The notes: generated by a model not told the origin, from the letters alone. Shown: positions 1-5,833, counted from the stretch's first letter. The stretch: 5,833 bases of DNA from a virus (IMGVR_UViG_2734482593_000003), one strand, 5' to 3'. A program made the numbers and translations.

Positions 1-17
1 GCCTGTCCAATGTGCAT

Positions 18-50
18 AAAAAAATCCGGAAACAAGTGAGCGTTTCCGGA
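18..50 (-). terminator. Rho-independent terminator immediately downstream of the portal gene
   Basis: Perfect 9-bp inverted repeat TCCGGAAAC (25-33) / GTTTCCGGA (42-50) with an 8-nt loop. On the minus-strand RNA the hairpin is followed by seven U (plus-strand A run 18-24). The plus-strand flank after the hairpin is only TTCTT, so it is mainly a minus-strand terminator. Confidence 0.6.
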
Positions 51-84
51 TTCTTACACAGCCACTGGATCGGTCAACTGATCC

Positions 85-1241
85 TTAACTGATCGGCATT
101 ACACCACCGGGACGCGGATTCATATCTTCCAGGTCGCGGCAGTCATTGGAAGAGTAAATTCCCCAGTTGATCCCGGTGGCGTAGGCTTCAAAACGGGACT
201 TCATATCCCCGCGCAGTAACGCCCCGGCGTTAAATTTGGCGTAATAAACGCCCTGCTTACTTTTTCGTACCAGTCCGGTGTTGATCCGCTGTTCGATGCG
301 GGTCAGATACGGCACCAGTGAATAGTTGATAAATCCCAGCCCCAGCTCTTCGATATTGTTGAAGGTGGCGCGATCGGTGTTCTGCACCATGTGCAACGGC
401 ACCCGGAACAGACGACAGATTTCTTCCAGCTGAAACTTGCGGGTTTCCAGGAACTGACTGTCCTCGGCGTTCAGCGCCATCGACTTCCAGTCCAGCCCCA
501 TTTCCAGAATCATCGGGCGGTGAGCATTGCCAAGCCCCGTGTGACACTCCTCAAAATCTTTCTTCAGACGCTCGTAAGCATCCGGCGTGAGCTTTTGTTC
601 CGTACGCAACACACCGGATGTCACCGCACCATTACTAAACAACCTGGCACCGTGCTCCTCGGTTGCCGCTGCCAGTGAAATGGCCTCACGCGCATACGCA
701 ATGGGATTCAGCCCGACAAGTCCATCCAGCGTCAGGGTGCGCACATGCCAGATTTCATTCTGGGTCAACACATCCACGGAACCATCCGGAAACGTCACCT
801 GATAAACCGGCTGCCACTGGCTGTTCAGCTTCGGTTCCACACAGCCCGGATCTATCGGAAGAAGCTCCACCACTTCTCCCAGTGCCTTTACCTTGTAGGC
901 GTAAAAATTCCCCCGTAGACACAGGCAGACAATAACCAGCTCCCAGAATTCCTGCGGTGTCATGTAGCCATTAGGTTTTGCCGAAACCAACTTATGCAGT
1001 CGTTCATCCACCGCCCGTGTTTTCAGGGTACCGCTGATTTTGTAGAGACTGCAGGGCAGCATACCAACAGACTCTGCCAGCACCCTGACGCAAGAATAGA
1101 CCGCCGTCAGGCGCATGGCCCGCTGGCTACTGATCCGCTTTCCGGTATAGGTGTCGTATGACAGCCCGATAGCATCAGCAGTTCTGCTGGCGTGGTCACC
1201 GGCACATCGCTTTTTCGTTGAAATAATCCCGAAAAGAACAC
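85..1241 (-). CDS. Phage portal protein (HK97 family); reading frame apparently interrupted by a 1-nt frameshift near 1164-1168 (possible pseudogene or sequencing error)
   Basis: The 85..1332 ORF contains the portal motif (AMRLTAVYSCVRVLAESVGMLPCSLYK) and ends at TAA 87..85. That frame has no ATG/GTG/TTG between the upstream small ORF stop (1241) and Met73 (ATG 1116..1114); its only upstream start is TTG 1332, with no SD, inside the small ORF. A different frame has GTG 1241..1239 with GGAGG 6 nt upstream, encoding MFFSGLFQRKSDVPVTTPAELLMLSG... with good codon usage, and stops at TGA 1109..1107. Codon quality switches between the two frames around the GGG run (plus-strand CCC 1165-1167). Confidence 0.8.
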
Positions 1242-1423
1242 TATTTACCTCCGCCGACAGACTGCCGTGTACGGTCGAGATATCGCGCCACCAGCCACGA
1301 CCAGAACAGGCACAGCGCCCCGGCAACAACAAAACCCGCCGGGGGATAAATCAGCCAGGCACCATACGCCAGCAAAAGCGCACCCAGCACGCCCACCAGA
1401 GGCGCGAGAATCAGCATGATCAT
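1241..1423 (-). CDS. Small hydrophobic membrane protein (60 aa, two predicted TM helices), function unknown
   Basis: ATG 1423..1421 lies 5 nt after GAGGT and directly after the terL stop (TAA 1437..1435). Codons are E. coli-typical (CTG/GCG/GGT rich). Sequence [60 protein letters not shown] has two hydrophobic segments and a basic C-terminus. Its TAG stop overlaps the portal GTG (TAGTG). Confidence 0.6.
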
Positions 1424-1434
1424 AATTACCTCAG

Positions 1435-3168
1435 TTAAAGCGAGCGGATCCCGTAGGACTCAATGTGGTCAGACAGCGTGTCTTCTTTCTCGTACAGCAT
1501 GGCTCTGCCAACCGCCATAATCAGCGCAACTGCACCATCGATTTTGTTTTCCGCCTGCTCTTTGACGGGTTTCACCACATCATCGTTACCCGGCATGTTT
1601 TTGCCGACCACGTTGCCGATACACCAGGTCATGATGGGATTGCCGTCATGATGAAAACGTCCCGATTCAATCGCTGCTTCCAGCTCTTTCATCGGATCGG
1701 ACATATTGGTGAAGTTCTGGACGATAGTGACGGGATTCAGGTCTTCATCAGCAAGGTCATGTGACAACCCGGTCGCCCCGAAGGGGTCGATGGGTGACTC
1801 ACTGACCGGGCTGATTTTGTTCGCCGCTTTGGCCTCCTCGAGGATGTAGCGATAATCCACCTCCGCACCATCGGTAACGGTCAGAACGCCCATTTCCACC
1901 CATTTCTGAAAGCGTTCGGCTGTCCGTCGATCTTCATTTTTCTCGACGCTGTACACCGTGTCATACGGTACCCAGAAACGCGGGGCCACACTGTAGTAAT
2001 GCGTTTTACCGTCAATCTCGCGGGTATAAAGTCGCGCCATGCTGTTCATATCCAGCTTACGCGCCAGGTCAAAGGCCAGAATGCACGGCTGCCCCTCGAA
2101 CTGCTCAAGGGTCAGTGATTTATCCTCGCAGCTCTGCCAGCTCACCAAGTTGAAATACGCCGAACGCGCCGACACCCAGATATTGAGGTGTTTTGTTTTA
2201 AAGACGTTTGCCAGACGGGCGTTATTTTTCGCACGCTGCTGCTGACTTAACAAAAATTCGCGATAAACCGACACGCCAATATTTGGATTGGCTTTTTCCA
2301 GCACCTGCGGGCCGGTCCAGTCGTCACCTTCATCAACGGTATAGATGATCCCGAACAGTTCATCGTTAGGCACCGAGCCGTTGAGCATCTCGATGACTTC
2401 CCGCCGCTTGTCGTAGCACGGCCCCTCAATGTTGTACCCGGCGGTGGTGATGGCCCACATCAGTGGCTGACGTCGCGCCCCCATCCCGGTAAGCATTGTG
2501 GTATAAAGCGCATCGGTGGCATGCTCGTGATATTCATCAACCACGGCACAGTGGGGTGATGAACCATCACCTGGGTTGCCGATCAGCGGTTCAAACCGCG
2601 CGCCATCCTCCGGACGGTTCATGTTTGAGGCGTTAACCTCAATCCCGAACGCTTCCGTCAGCATGGGTGTGCGTTTACACATCAGTCGCGCCGGGCGAAA
2701 GACTTCCCACGCCTGTTTCTCTGTCGTGGCACCGGAATACACTTCCGCGCCAAACTCGTTATCACAGGCAAAACAATACAGGGCAACACCGGCAGAGATT
2801 GCTGATTTGCCGTTCTTACGGGGGATTTCGGTGTACACCTCCCGGAAGCGGCGCAACCGGGTGCCTTTATTGACCCAGCCAAACGCACAGCAGATCACAA
2901 ATAGCTGCCACGGCTCCAGCGTGATGGGCATCCGTTTGAATGCCCACTCCCCCTTGGTGTGCGGCAACAGCTGAATAAATTTCGCGGCCCGTTCAGCCAG
3001 GTCCTTGTCGAAGCGGTAACGAAACGACTTACTTTTTTCCGCCATCAGGTCATCAAGATGGCGCTGGCAGGCCTGAATCACAAACTGGCAGGCAACAATC
3101 TTTCCGCGCACGACATCCCGGGCATACTGATTTGCAGCATTTACGTTGGGGTAAGATTTCCGGCTCAT
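1435..3168 (-). CDS. terL: Phage terminase large subunit (577 aa)
   Basis: Long ORF with ATG start 3168..3166 in an ATGA overlap with the upstream terS stop. Walker A-like PRKNGKS near the N-terminus, acidic motifs (VVDEYHE) and a C-terminal nuclease-like region. Sits between terS and portal as in HK97-like head modules. Assigned from recalled family features. Confidence 0.95.
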
Positions 3169-3659
3169 GATTCGATAATTTTCAGAAACGGGTTAGTGGC
3201 TTTCTTCTGCCCCGCCAGGCCAATCAGACGCTGGCGGCTGCTGGGGTCGAGTCCGAGCATTGCCCCCGTGCTGCTCATCTCGGACTCCTGTTCTTTTTTG
3301 GCGGTCAGCTCCGGATTTTTGACCCTGCCGCCCATTGCACCGGTGATGGTGTTGCCCTGTATGGCAATATTTTTCACGGCACGTCGCCAGAACTCATAGG
3401 CCACGCACCACCGCTCAAGTACCGCCAGGTCAGTCACGCACAGCAGGCCCTGACCGCAGAGTTCTTTGGTTGTCAGTTGCCACATGATCGTGGCGAGAGG
3501 GAGATCTTCTTCAGCGAACCACTCTGGTGGCTCAACACCTTTGATGGGCGTAAAAACAGGTTCATCTTTGTTCAGGGCTCGCTTGCCGGGGTTTCCGGCC
3601 AGCGCCTTGCGCGCCGTTGGCTTGGGGCGACGCCCGGAACGCCCCGCCGTTCCAGCCAT
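3165..3659 (-). CDS. terS: Phage terminase small subunit, P27 family (164 aa)
   Basis: N-terminus [27 protein letters not shown] is characteristic of P27-family small terminase subunits. I chose ATG 3659..3657, which has AGGAG 8 nt upstream, over the GTG at 3668 used by the ORF track. Stop TGA 3167..3165 overlaps the terL ATG. Confidence 0.85.
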
Positions 3660-3780
3660 ATGCGGCACTCCTGGTTAAATTTCATTTTTCGCGGGTATAA
3701 AAAAACGATGGGGCGGGCAGTCCGGAAGACGTCAGGTCACAGGGATTTGCCCCGCCCCTCCCTACAAGTGAGAATAATTA
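3660..3780. other. Putative cos / packaging-recognition region between the HNH and terS genes
   Basis: 121-bp intergenic region in the position where HK97-like phages carry cos (HNH gene - cos - terS). Contains a perfect 8-bp GC inverted repeat GGGGCGGG (3710-3717) / CCCGCCCC (3751-3758) separated by 33 bp, flanked by A/T-rich tracts. Assignment is by position and composition only. Confidence 0.4.
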
Positions 3781-4131
3781 TCACCGGATTCGTTCGCGCG
3801 CTGTTTTCGCTTTATGGCAGGGCCAGCACAGACTCTGCAGGTTGCTGTCTGCGTCTGTTCCGCCATGCGCTTTCGGGATGATGTGGTCGACGGTTTTCGC
3901 CTCGCTCACCACACCGACACGCAGACACAACTGACACAGACCTTTATCGCGCTTCAGAATACGGGCACGAATCACCGTCCATTTTGAGCCATAGCCACGC
4001 TGGTGGCGGCTCAGTCCGCGCTGGTGCTGCACCCAGCCTTCACCGCGATGTTTATCGCAGTAACCCGAACTGTCTGTGGTTGTACCTGCACATCCACGCT
4101 TACGGCAGGCACGTGGGATTAGTGATGGCAT
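3781..4131 (-). CDS. HNH endonuclease, phage packaging-associated (116 aa)
   Basis: ATG 4131..4129 with GAGGT 7 nt upstream. Cys-rich zinc-finger-like N-terminus (CRKRGCAG...C) and HNH motif DHIIPKAHGGTDADSNLQSLCWPCH. Located directly upstream of terS, as HK97 gp74. Confidence 0.9.
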   Translation of the reverse strand: MPSLIPRACRKRGCAGTTTDSSGYCDKHRGEGWVQHQRGLSRHQRGYGSKWTVIRARILKRDKGLCQLCLRVGVVSEAKTVDHIIPKAHGGTDADSNLQSLCWPCHKAKTARERIR

Positions 4132-4173
4132 AAATACCTCATACCCTGCGAAATGTTTACCACGATAAAAAGG

Positions 4174-4521
4174 CTACTTAATGCACTGAGTGCGGATATA
4201 CTCCTGTGCCCCTTCCAGTTGCATCTGCATCGTCATCAGCCGCTCTCTGAGGGTGAAATAATCCCGTTCAGCGGTGTCTGCCAGTCGGGGGCTGGTTGCA
4301 TTATCCACGCCGGAGGCGGTGGTGGCTTCACGCACTGACTGACAGACTGCTTTGATGTGCAACCGACGACGACCAGCGGCAACATCAGCGCGCAGAGTTT
4401 CATTTTCAGCTTTCGCAACTTTGTAGGTAATGGCGTTATCACGGTAATGATTAACAGCCCATGACAGGCAGACGATGATGCAGATAACCAGAGCGGAGAT
4501 AATCGCGGTGACTCTGCTCAT
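4174..4521 (-). CDS. Rz: Rz i-spanin (inner-membrane spanin subunit), shortened variant (115 aa)
   Basis: From ATG 4521..4519, which overlaps the R stop as ATGA, the product [34 protein letters not shown]... matches lambda Rz as I recall it through residue 34, then resumes at AKAEN...[25 protein letters not shown]. About 39 residues of the periplasmic coiled coil are absent relative to the 153-aa lambda Rz. The ORF track starts 4 codons earlier at GTG 4533. Confidence 0.85.
4236..4403 (-). CDS. Rz1: Rz1 o-spanin (outer-membrane lipoprotein subunit), embedded in the +1 frame of Rz
   Basis: Near-identical to lambda Rz1 as recalled: lipobox LVVVGC followed by [43 protein letters not shown] 4403..4401 is taken as the start; alternative starts are TTG 4418 (the position aligning to lambda Met1) or GTG 4442 (ORF track). 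Confidence 0.8.
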
Positions 4522-5015
4522 TGCTGCCCCCACAAACAGACTTCACGCTCAATCTCACGACGGGTCATCAGCCCTTTCCATTGCTTACCGCCAGCATATG
4601 TCCAGCGACGTAGCTGGTCACATGCGCCTTTGATATCGCCCTGGTTTATTTTGCGAAGAAGCGTCGATGTTCTGAAATTGCCAGCGCCCACGTTGTAAAC
4701 GAACGAGTAAAGAGCGCCGCGCGTTGTTTCCGGTATATCGACTTTGATGTACGGGTTAATTTGTCTGGCGACAGTGGCAAGGTCTTTATTCAGGAGGGCT
4801 TTGCATTCTGCTTCGGTATACGTTTTACCGAGCATGATGTCTTTTCCGGTGTGTCCGTGACATACAGTCCATACACCAATGATATCTTTGTATGGTATGT
4901 AGCTGACACCTTCCAGACCATCGTTACCACCTGGGCCAGTGATTAACACAGATGCTATAGCAACAGCCCCACCACCAATAGCAGCTGCAACAGCCTTGCG
5001 TAATGATGGCGACAT
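4518..5015 (-). CDS. R: SAR endolysin (phage 21 R-type lysozyme, 165 aa)
   Basis: Near-identical to the phage 21 endolysin as recalled. Gly/Ala-rich N-terminal signal-arrest-release segment ([24 protein letters not shown]), followed by catalytic Glu/Asp/Thr spacing (GLEGVSY...[12 protein letters not shown]). ATG 5015..5013 overlaps the S stop as TAATG. Confidence 0.95.
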
Positions 5016-5230
5016 TATTCACCTCTCGCAGCCTTACGCTTGTCTTCTCTTATTTTGAAATACAGATTTGTCAGATAAGTCAGAAGCCCCAGAAGCAGAC
5101 TTCCCAGCACACCAATCGCAGCCCACTGTGATGGACTGACCTGATCCAACCACTGCAAAAACCAGTAGCCGGCACTGCCGGCGGAGGTGCCGTAGGCAAT
5201 GCCTGTTGATATTTTTTCCATCTGATACAT
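5015..5230 (-). CDS. S: Pinholin, phage 21 S-type (S21/EssD family), dual-start (71 and 68 aa forms)
   Basis: [71 protein letters not shown]: two TM helices and a basic C-terminus, matching S21/EssD as recalled. Two in-frame ATGs at 5230 and 5221 (Met1 and Met4) give the dual-start motif. G-rich SD-like sequence lies upstream. Confidence 0.95.
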
Positions 5231-5261: not shown

Positions 5262-5296
5262 AAAGAAAAAAGGCCATCAGCAAAACTCTGATGGCC
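5262..5296 (-). terminator. Rho-independent terminator just upstream of the lysis cassette (candidate late-operon terminator tR')
   Basis: Perfect 9-bp stem GGCCATCAG (5272-5280) / CTGATGGCC (5288-5296) with a 7-nt loop. On the minus-strand RNA it is followed by UUUUUUCUUUC (plus 5271-5261). It lies 32 bp upstream of the S start codon. Confidence 0.6.
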
Positions 5297-5833
5297 TGAA
5301 TCACCTTTACCAATATTGTATGAAAAAACACGCACGACTAATTGACAATAATTTTCATTTCCATTAAAAAAGATCGCGTAGCATTCTTAATTCATGAGGA
5401 ACTTTACCCGCCAGCAATCTGAGTAGCGAAAGCTGTTCATCCCCAATGTTTTTGCTGGCGGGTCCTTTTTTCTACGGTCCTCCTCCCCGGAGGGGGGCAT
5501 TTCATTATTTTTCTAATCGTTACTGGTGAGAAGGCGGAAGAAAAAGCCAGTTCTTCGCCCCTAAATAACAGCATGATTCCAGTCCATGCAAAATCTGATT
5601 TCCAGCTCACACATACCGAGCGCTGTACAAAAAACCGCCAGCCAAGGCAGTTAAGAGTGTGTTCCCGGGGTTTGCTTAGAATATTTTGTAAGTTGTCCGA
5701 AGAGATATTTACAACACCAGAATGATGCATTATCAGTCCCCTGCCAGAGGTTCACTACGTAACCTGACCGACAATGAAGTGGCACACTGAATTTGGCCAC
5801 CTGAACAGAGGTGATATGCTCACCTCAGAACAA

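Follow-up and report, generated by a model that had tools for sequence, protein, structure and literature searches.

A terminator-like hairpin beside a truncated phage portal gene is the left end of IS4 and probably insulates its transposase gene from outside transcription

Does the head operon of a prophage end directly after its portal gene? The question is raised by one edge of a 5,833-nucleotide stretch of viral DNA (IMGVR_UViG_2734482593_000003; hereafter the window, positions being counted from its first letter), whose minus strand carries, shortly after a stop codon closing a portal-homologous reading frame, a hairpin followed by a run of U's. The first-pass annotation of this DNA took the structure for a strong intrinsic terminator, located where the prohead protease gene would normally start, and proposed that the operon ends there. 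We find that the structure is real, that it belongs to an insertion sequence and not to the phage, and that its most probable role is to keep the transposase gene silent towards transcription arriving from the flanking DNA.

On the minus strand, the sequence reads ...GTGTAAGAATCCGGAAAC-GCTCACTT-GTTTCCGGATTTTTTT-ATG or, over a wider span, ...TGTGTAAGAATCCGGAAAC-GCTCACTT-GTTTCCGGATTTTTTT-ATGCACATTGGACAGGC. The perfect 9-bp stem core (50..42 with 33..25) and the U7 tract (24..18) are present just as the first-pass annotation had them. The stem is extendable to 11 bp (52..42 with 33..23), and the minimum free energy fold contains 15 pairs, with an upstream AAGAA pairing with the first U's of the tract; the structure can thus be described as a stem of 11–15 bp, including five G-C pairs, closed by a loop of 6–8 nt. 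The hairpin is strongly non-random: taken alone, it folds at -18.8 kcal/mol as compared to -5.4 ± 2.2 kcal/mol for dinucleotide shuffles (z = -6.2; 0 of 200 shuffles equal it), and a z-score of -4.5 is obtained for the 100-nt context around it. Both sequence characteristics of an intrinsic terminator are found, i.e. a stable GC-containing stem with a short loop and an adjoining U-rich tract, and this terminator-type anatomy is placed 0–1 nt ahead of the start codon of a transposase gene (see below). On the plus strand, the stem is followed by TTCTTACA, which contains no T-run, so that a terminator formed by the hairpin would be effectively one-directional. The only Shine-Dalgarno-like triplet, GGA (28..26), lies within the 3' arm, 8 nt ahead of the ATG; the translation-initiation signals are thus inside the hairpin, as expected of an insulator. 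Note that a generic promoter and terminator scan of the window did not list this hairpin, probably because the stem was extended through the A/T tracts, leaving too few T's; given its high background (14 found versus 6.3 expected), the terminator scan carries no information for or against the hairpin. A search of window 1–400 with the Rfam covariance models, on both strands and at E ≤ 10, gave no match.

The origin of the structure is apparent from a megablast comparison of window 1–1400 with phage records. Portal genes of the P27/SfIV/ST64B type cover positions 102/116–1400 at 87–93.5% identity, and window 1–106 corresponds, at 100% identity, to an end of IS4 ("Transposase InsG for insertion sequence element IS4"). 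In 19 phage records and some 870 prophages of E. coli, the phage homology ends at window 102–116; past this junction, phiP27 and the E. coli T2 prophage, in which the sequence is uninterrupted, go on with ATGT(C/G)TATCT.... When the IS4 end was delimited, the phage homology of every relative was taken to stop at window 102–104. In the alignment, the phage part reads ...GATATGAATCCGCGTCCCGGTGGTG, its last base being window 102, and the IS4 terminus, TAATGCCGATCAGTTAAGG..., runs from window 101; the boundary is ambiguous by 1 nt, as the G at 102 can be assigned to either partner. The left terminal repeat TAATGCCGATCAGTTAAG (101..84) fits the consensus of IS4-subgroup termini, -AATR (PMC2266710). 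The matching right-end inverted repeat is present about 1426 bp away in two related chromosomes (L007 and L008), which carry a full 1426-bp IS4, identical at 1421 of 1426 positions to the lambda_4B5 copy and ending ...CTTAACTGACTGGCATTA.

With IS4 nt n corresponding to window 102 - n, the hairpin occupies IS4 nt 50–79, the U-tract ends at nt 84 and the ATG (17..15) is nt 85–87. In related chromosomes the same ATG opens a 442-aa ORF with the PF13006 (Nterm_IS4) and PF01609 (DDE_Tnp_1) domains (13152–14480 in L007 and L008). The first-pass annotation gave 17 bp as remaining beyond the hairpin and called the downstream content unknown; these 17 bp can be identified as the first codons of insG (MHIGQ). 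The hairpin and U7 tract are therefore a built-in part of IS4 (nt 50–84), located between the left terminal repeat and the transposase ATG. In other words, what looked like a phage feature belongs to the ordinary left end of an insertion sequence that has long been known. The coordinates are collected in Table 1.

Table 1. Features at and around the junction between the portal gene and IS4 (window coordinates)
Feature	Position	Strand	Details
Hairpin	23..52	-	5' arm AATCCGGAAAC (52..42), loop GCTCACTT (41..34), 3' arm GTTTCCGGATT (33..23)
U7 tract	18..24	-	Seven T's, directly 3' of the stem, adjoining the transposase start codon
IS4 left end (IS4 nt 1-101)	1..101	-	Matches IS4 copies in lambda_4B5, E. 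coli and Shigella at 100% identity
IS4 left terminal inverted repeat, TAATGCCGATCAGTTAAG	84..101	-	16/18 positions match the right-end repeat TAATGCCAGTCAGTTAAG in full-length copies
Start of the IS4 transposase gene insG	1..17	-	ATG 17..15, MHIGQ...; the window stops 17 nt into the gene
Promoter-like -35 hexamer TTGACC (IS4 nt 25-30)	72..77	-	Consensus match; position and 16-nt spacer the same in most relatives
Promoter-like -10 hexamer AAGAAT, with upstream TG	50..55	-	Its final AAT also forms the beginning (three bases) of the 5' arm
TAA closing the interrupted portal frame	85..87	-	IS4 sequence, within the terminal inverted repeat
Portal pseudogene (PF04860)	102..1241	-	Pfam E = 3e-107; alignment to phiP27 and E. 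coli T2
Phage late genes (holin, lysozyme, Rz, HNH, small and large terminase)	1435..5230	-	Pfam; order as in phiP27 and the E. coli T2 prophage

The stop codon on which the idea of an operon end had been built has the same origin. The TAA at 87..85, 34 nt ahead of the hairpin stem, does close the portal-homologous ORF, but it is part of the IS4 terminal repeat and the real portal stop would lie 33 codons further on. Indeed, the 413-residue portal protein of the E. coli T2 prophage has the C-terminus ...NPRPGG-DVYLTPMNMTTKPSDGSKAGKQKDNANADETTS; here the frame ends ...NPRPGG-VMPIS*, IS4 having cut the 3' end of the gene after codon 380 of 413 and the 33 C-terminal codons having been exchanged for five IS4-encoded ones. 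The gene also carries a -1 frameshift (a 1-nt deletion) at about 1179/1180, near codon 22, because of which the frame opened by the native GTG start (1241..1239) stops after 44 codons. By tblastn, portal residues 1–21 and 5–380 are found in different frames, and none past 380. The first 30 codons or so of the 415-aa portal ORF that had been listed are out-of-frame sequence; since the frameshift splits the native start from the remainder of the gene, this ORF is partly an artefact. A sequencing error was considered as the cause of the frameshift and rejected, the deletion being present in all 10 related contigs, which are independent. The portal gene is thus a pseudogene, through IS4 truncation and an independent -1 frameshift.

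To follow the locus beyond the window, as the first-pass annotation had proposed in order to look for an intact protease gene, we retrieved the DNA to the left by an exact look-up of the large-terminase protein, which yielded the ten contigs L004–L013. The identical portal–IS4 junction is present in nine of these, all chromosomes and including CP000038.1, which we take to be Shigella sonnei Ss046; the tenth, L013, breaks off within the portal gene. Over positions 1–4417, the window and these related loci are 100% identical; further right, they differ by a 117-nt deletion. In L007 and L008, the complete IS4 is followed by raiA-pheL-pheA-tyrA-aroF. In most of the other junction chromosomes, an IS3-family element cuts IS4 at nt ~1110 and is followed by bamE-recN-nadK-grpE: the identity to IS4 breaks off at this point in most of L004–L006 and L010–L012, and at nt ~221 in L004. 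L009 has kept the IS4 right end, with an internal discontinuity near nt 970. Past the portal gene there are thus IS4 and then host genes, with no protease gene in any of the nine chromosomes, as the first-pass annotation had expected; over 8.6 kb past the junction, tblastn and blastn detected no protease, no capsid or connector gene and no trace of the missing portal 3' end. In the HK97-like/P27-like head modules of the intact relatives (phiP27 and the E. coli T2 prophage), by contrast, the protease start precedes the portal stop by 23 nt, there is no hairpin, and the capsid, connector and tail genes come next; here this junction has been destroyed, IS4 entering 79 nt upstream of the expected protease start.

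The complete IS4 copy is not flanked by a target-site duplication, although a direct repeat of 10–13 bp is characteristic of the subgroup (left flank ...CGTCCCGGTGGTG, right flank CAGCCCTTGAGCTGCC; ...CCCGGTGGTG and CAGCCCTTGAGC... as compared), whereas 13 of 17 control IS4 copies have clean duplications of 11–14 bp. We interpret the missing duplication as the result of a secondary rearrangement and not as evidence against the IS4 identity. A simple insertion of IS4 into a prophage that is intact beyond it was rejected, since there is no duplication and host genes come next; for the same two reasons, IS4 marks a rearrangement junction. An IS4-associated rearrangement, either a deletion or a recombination between IS4 copies, has removed the head and tail genes from this position. 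The suggestion that the head module is truncated, or that foreign DNA has been inserted, therefore holds on both counts, except that the foreign DNA was placed downstream of the hairpin: it starts upstream, at 101, and the hairpin lies inside it. The exact 49-nt portal–IS4 junction has 0 matches in species-representative genomes and none in 5,426 complete E. coli genomes, in which the best places span just 102–2500 at 93%.

This IS4 copy is lodged in the portal 3' end of a decayed prophage, P27/ST64B-like and of the Shigella sonnei type, in which the HNH, small and large terminase, ymfR-like and portal genes are collinear with those of phiP27 and related E. coli prophages, at 88–93% DNA identity. 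The locus should accordingly be annotated as a portal pseudogene adjoining IS4, in a cryptic prophage incapable of head formation; the "terminator after portal" and the "415-aa portal ORF" are by-products of the IS4 insertion and the frameshift. The case illustrates IS-driven prophage erosion in Shigella-type genomes. As to the question raised at the outset, the notion of a terminator of the phage's own that ends the head operon after portal can be set aside almost entirely: the hairpin is on the coding strand, 34 nt past the stop of a portal-homologous ORF, and has canonical terminator anatomy, but stop and hairpin both fall within 101 nt of 100% IS4, a comparison with phiP27 and the E. coli T2 prophage showed no hairpin at the homologous position and a protease gene that overlaps the portal stop, and the same hairpin stands ahead of the transposase ATG at many unrelated sites, in other genera as well.

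What, then, does the hairpin do for IS4? We collected IS4 transposase homologues from species-representative genomes (80 loci, with transposase identities from 100% down to 55%; the aligned set spans 67–100%). Wherever the upstream sequence of an element was usable, a hairpin adjoins the transposase ATG. The 29 distinct 48-nt upstream segments, which come from Enterobacterales, Halomonas, Legionellaceae, Ferrimonas, Pseudaeromonas and other taxa, all fold, at -13 to -32 kcal/mol, and a run of 4–8 T's is present in 26 of them. The outer stem is conserved together with the motif GGA-T(4-8)-ATG, the most conserved part of the region. By contrast, the inner stem diverges with compensation: it is CCGGAAAC/GTTTCCGG in Escherichia, CCAGAAAC/GTTTCTGG in Rahnella, CCGGTGATC/GATCACCGG in a Pseudomonadota MAG (L080), with close variants in Legionellaceae and Desulfobulbaceae MAGs, CCGGTATCAG/CTGATACCGG in Halomonas and CTGAGTTC/GAACTCGG in Ferrimonas. 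RNAalifold applied to 20 sequences gave 14 pairs, seven of which show double-sided changes. When pairs were counted, 97.9% of the cells were paired and 37 were compensatory; none of 500 shuffles reached any of the five covariation measures, and sliding the register by 1–3 columns lowered the pairing to 32–65%. Conservation with covariation in 29 distinct relatives shows that the hairpin is not a chance structure.

The covariation also indicates in which molecule the stem matters. On the transposase-sense strand, we counted 24 G.U/U.G cells against a single C.A cell. Since the G.U cells would be mismatched on the other strand or in duplex DNA, the comparison points to an RNA of sense polarity: judging from these alignments, the stem is selected as a sense-strand RNA structure and not as duplex or antisense DNA. 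This bears on the idea of a DNA-level element, i.e. a binding site for transposase or a host factor, or a cruciform acting in transposition. The hairpin does lie within the first 85 bp, where transposases and host factors bind in other members of the IS4 family (IS10 and IS50), but such a role is very improbable here because the stem sequence varies freely between lineages while its pairing is kept, neither the sequence nor the length of the loop is conserved, and wobble cells number 24 in the sense polarity against one in antisense.

The proposed insulation depends on where the element's own transcript starts. A promoter scan identified TTGACC-16-AAGAAT (77..50, minus strand), which matches the consensus at 9 of 12 positions and has a TG upstream of the -10 hexamer. 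TTGAnn-16-nAnAAT is the best sigma70-like match in most lineages, including ones with diverged stems, and the -10 hexamer is always nAnnnT in 20 aligned relatives. We infer that this site acts as the IS4 promoter, in which case the insG transcript would start at window ~45–41, within the 5' arm or at the edge of the loop: with a start predicted about 7 nt past the -10 hexamer, the transcript would retain just 3–5 nt of this arm. When folded from window 46, 44 or 42 onwards, the RNA gives -3.4, 0 and 0 kcal/mol, respectively. Note that the promoter geometry could alternatively be conserved because the transposase binds this sequence, or because the A-tract has to pair with the U-tract.

Should the true promoter instead lie upstream of the whole hairpin, every transcript would be attenuated, and the hairpin would hold the transposase at a constitutively very low level. 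Transposase levels are typically very low, the promoter assignment is a consensus match, the best promoter match in the Halomonas elements L073, L079 and L083 would keep the stem whole, and the SD-sequestering stem-loop of IS200 acts on the element's own mRNA (PMC4513863). We nevertheless regard such self-attenuation as unlikely: the 50 nt upstream of the hairpin contain no better promoter-like site, the overlap between the -10 hexamer and the 5' arm is kept across diverged stems along with the 16-nt spacer to TTGAnn, and a strong terminator acting on all transcripts would leave the element nearly inert.

Another possibility, to which we give the same low weight, is that the hairpin acts on translation only, the stem hiding the ribosome-binding site, be it in read-through transcripts or in all of them, and the U-tract being an A/U-rich spacer or an S1-binding enhancer. 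The same three Halomonas elements, which form one clade, have a strong hairpin with a better SD sequence (GGGAAG or GGAAAGG) within the 3' arm, and no T-tract. In addition, GGA-T(4-8)-ATG is conserved as would be an SD sequence with its spacing, and fold-back occlusion in IS10 and IS50 reportedly offers a precedent. On the other hand, a GC-containing stem of 11–15 bp followed by 5–8 U's is a canonical terminator, and it is kept in 26 of the 29 relatives; moreover, a hairpin and T-tract recur in the same arrangement at the other end of IS4, where a 3' end has been mapped in vivo. Termination and occlusion of the ribosome-binding site are not mutually exclusive. Since the Halomonas elements lack a T-tract, termination does not extend to the whole subgroup, and the core, more general function may be SD occlusion. 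In IS4 itself, the occlusion argument taken alone is weak, the SD-like element being just GGA.

The evidence from the right end is as follows. In E. coli K-12, Term-seq mapped an RNA 3' end at 4502127 on the plus strand, antisense to insG, under two growth conditions (PMC7815308, supplementary file 1). In the printed 61-nt string, this 3' end is the base right after GCCAGTCAGTT-AAGC-AACTGACTGGC-TCTTTTT, i.e. a hairpin that the right terminal repeat forms when read inward, and the flanking CATCTTGGTTCTG matches the duplicated target of the E. coli copy L014. A right-end hairpin with a T-rich tract is found in 18 relatives. IS4-type elements thus appear insulated against inward transcription at both ends, the inward-facing terminator-like hairpins shielding the transposase gene from host or phage transcription. 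The K-12 Term-seq tables contain no 3' end at the left end of IS4; perhaps nothing transcribes into that side in K-12.

Taken as a whole, the reading that best explains these data, and to which we assign a probability of about three in four, is that the hairpin is IS4's own, now situated in a decayed prophage, and that it insulates insG from outside transcription. A transcript reading in from the flanking DNA (here from the phage late operon, the late genes upstream being a potential source of transcription entering IS4) would carry both arms. These would pair to form the stem (about -19 kcal/mol) ahead of U7, and transcription would terminate 1–7 nt ahead of the insG ATG. In transcripts escaping termination, the sole SD-like GGA would be locked in the 3' arm and the ribosome-binding site occluded. 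The IS4 mRNA initiated from TTGACC-16-AAGAAT, on the other hand, would begin inside or just past the 5' arm and form no stem; starting within the stem, it would be neither terminated nor occluded. Two features of the locus could modulate this scheme. Q-modified polymerase is generally resistant to terminators, as established for lambdoid phages, and a Q-family gene is present upstream in the related loci; termination at this site could thus be inefficient during induction, owing to Q antitermination of late transcripts. In addition, late transcription may be negligible in a decayed prophage.

We tentatively go one step further and suggest, as a possibility that we hold to be somewhat doubtful, that the left end of the IS4 subgroup is a compact module that has not been formally described, in which one hairpin would be both intrinsic terminator and SD occluder and would be interleaved with the element's own -10 hexamer, so that only internally initiated mRNA escapes, and which would be paired with an inward-facing terminator at the right end. 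Covariation attests to its conservation among gammaproteobacterial relatives of IS4, and Rfam lists no family for it. The survey of IS4-family elements in genomes does not mention the hairpin (PMC2266710), and in the literature on insG and IS4 that was covered, which did not extend to the original description of the IS4 sequence, we found nothing on the 5' region; the comparative evidence for IS4 itself may thus be unreported. If the start and the termination are borne out, the module would be a minimal device discriminating self from outside transcripts and a candidate for a new family of cis-regulatory RNAs. The kind of regulation is already known from IS200, IS10 and IS50, and no new question is opened; the covarying stem, the promoter overlap and the clade devoid of a U-tract offer a cheap and clear test of a known regulatory design.

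How does this locus compare with known elements? With respect to IS4 proper, the left end is identical (terminal repeat, subterminal region, hairpin, U7 tract and first insG codons). Most other copies have a target-site duplication of 11–14 bp, whereas the present copy has none: it marks a rearrangement junction and not a simple insertion, and in several strains it is itself truncated by an IS3-family element. IS10 and IS50, which belong to the same IS4 family, are reportedly protected from external promoters by a fold-back of the RNA that occludes the start region (Davis, Simons and Kleckner, 1985). The likeness is close: transcripts from outside carry a 5' segment that pairs with the initiation region, and the elements' own transcripts start downstream of it and are translatable. 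The effect in IS10 and IS50 is translational, however, and no canonical hairpin-plus-U-tract terminator is known to adjoin the ATG. In addition, IS10 employs an antisense RNA, RNA-OUT (PMC4513863).

Terminators located 5' of transposase genes are treated by Naville and Gautheret (2010), in the passage that deals with them, as intrinsic parts of IS elements that block expression in transcribed regions (PMC2965389). The class 1 'mobile attenuators' named in that passage are those of ISBma2, of IS3, IS2, IS600, IS1329 and IS407A, and of ISL3; IS4 is not among the elements named there (PMC2965389).

The left end of IS200 provides the closest parallel in layout, with a rho-independent terminator (nt 12–34) directed against impinging transcription and an SD-sequestering stem-loop (nt 69–138) (PMC4513863). 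As in IS4, a left-end hairpin terminator stands upstream of the transposase gene and an RNA structure hides the Shine-Dalgarno sequence. The transposase families are unrelated, that of IS200 being of the Y1/HUH type, and the function is experimental in IS200, whereas we infer that of the IS4 hairpin. The two elements also differ in how the tasks are distributed. IS200 divides them between two structures, of which the terminator is bidirectional and precedes the tnpA start (about nt 40). In IS4, both tasks would fall to one hairpin, essentially unidirectional, which adjoins the ATG and overlaps the putative -10 hexamer, so that escape from it would require initiation inside the stem.

The portal gene of the prophage was inactivated twice, by a frameshift and by IS4, since the 1-nt deletion responsible for the frameshift, recognized by comparison with the intact portal genes of phiP27 and the E. 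coli T2 prophage, is common to all ten related contigs (10/10). As a result of the shift, only 44 codons are read from the native GTG start of the gene. IS4 has itself been disrupted: in most related strains (L004–L006 and L010–L012, ~14200 onward) it is cut at nt ~1110 by an IS3-family element encoding HTH_Tnp_1 and rve domains on the opposite strand, and a second copy of this element lies upstream, adjoining the DnaB-like gene of the prophage. These arrangements show that the prophage has been eroded by nested IS insertions.

In the related chromosomes that retain a complete IS4 (L007 and L008), the right flank of the element, upstream of raiA (~14494 onward), is CAGCCCTTGAGCTGCC, i.e. the reverse complement of GGCAGCTCAAGGGCTG, the sequence bordering further IS4 copies on their left side in S. 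flexneri and E. coli (L025 and L082, ~501–516). Because the flanks are reverse-complementary and target duplications are absent, as they likewise are from the S. flexneri and E. coli copies with left flank GGCAGCTCAAGGGCTG, an exchange of flanks through IS4–IS4 recombination or inversions is suggested.

The right terminal repeat of IS4, which lies outside the window (L007 ~14440–14493), forms an inward-facing hairpin followed by TCTTTTT. In E. coli K-12, Term-seq places an RNA 3' end exactly at this right-end hairpin (4502127, plus strand), antisense to insG, and the hairpin was found in 18 relatives of the IS4 subgroup. At the left end, three Halomonas elements of this subgroup (L073, L079 and L083) retain, within the 48 nt that precede the transposase ATG, a hairpin of very high stability (−23 to −32 kcal/mol) whose 3' arm contains an SD-like GGGAAG or GGAAAGG, and they have no U-tract before the transposase start (…ATCC-ATG). 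This form is a natural variant that sets RBS occlusion apart from termination.

An in-frame stretch of 39 codons that the Rz gene has in the S. sonnei-type loci is missing from the window, where the gene encodes 119 aa instead of 154 aa; the window strain is therefore not among the retrieved loci. Nor did the BLAST alignments cover window 5777–5833. The holin start codon is preceded, at a distance of ~41 nt, by a strong hairpin resembling a terminator (a 10-bp stem, six of whose pairs are G–C, then TTTTTTCTTTC). This hairpin may be the tR'-type terminator, overridden by a Q antiterminator, at the start of a lambdoid late operon.

Coordinates of features in the window
Feature	Position	Strand	Remark
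GATC (Dam) sites	94..91, 83..80, 71..68	−	n = 3, first 35 nt of IS4
Portal 1-nt deletion	~1175–1180	−	codon ~22
Native portal GTG start	1241..1239		
Rz / Phage_lysis gene	4174..4533		117 nt missing at ~4418, inside ORF
Terminator-like hairpin	5271–5297	−	

The third GATC site at the IS4 left end directly adjoins the putative −35 hexamer (TTGACC-GATC). IS10 and IS50 have Dam-sensitive ends and promoters, which the GATC sites of the IS4 left end resemble.
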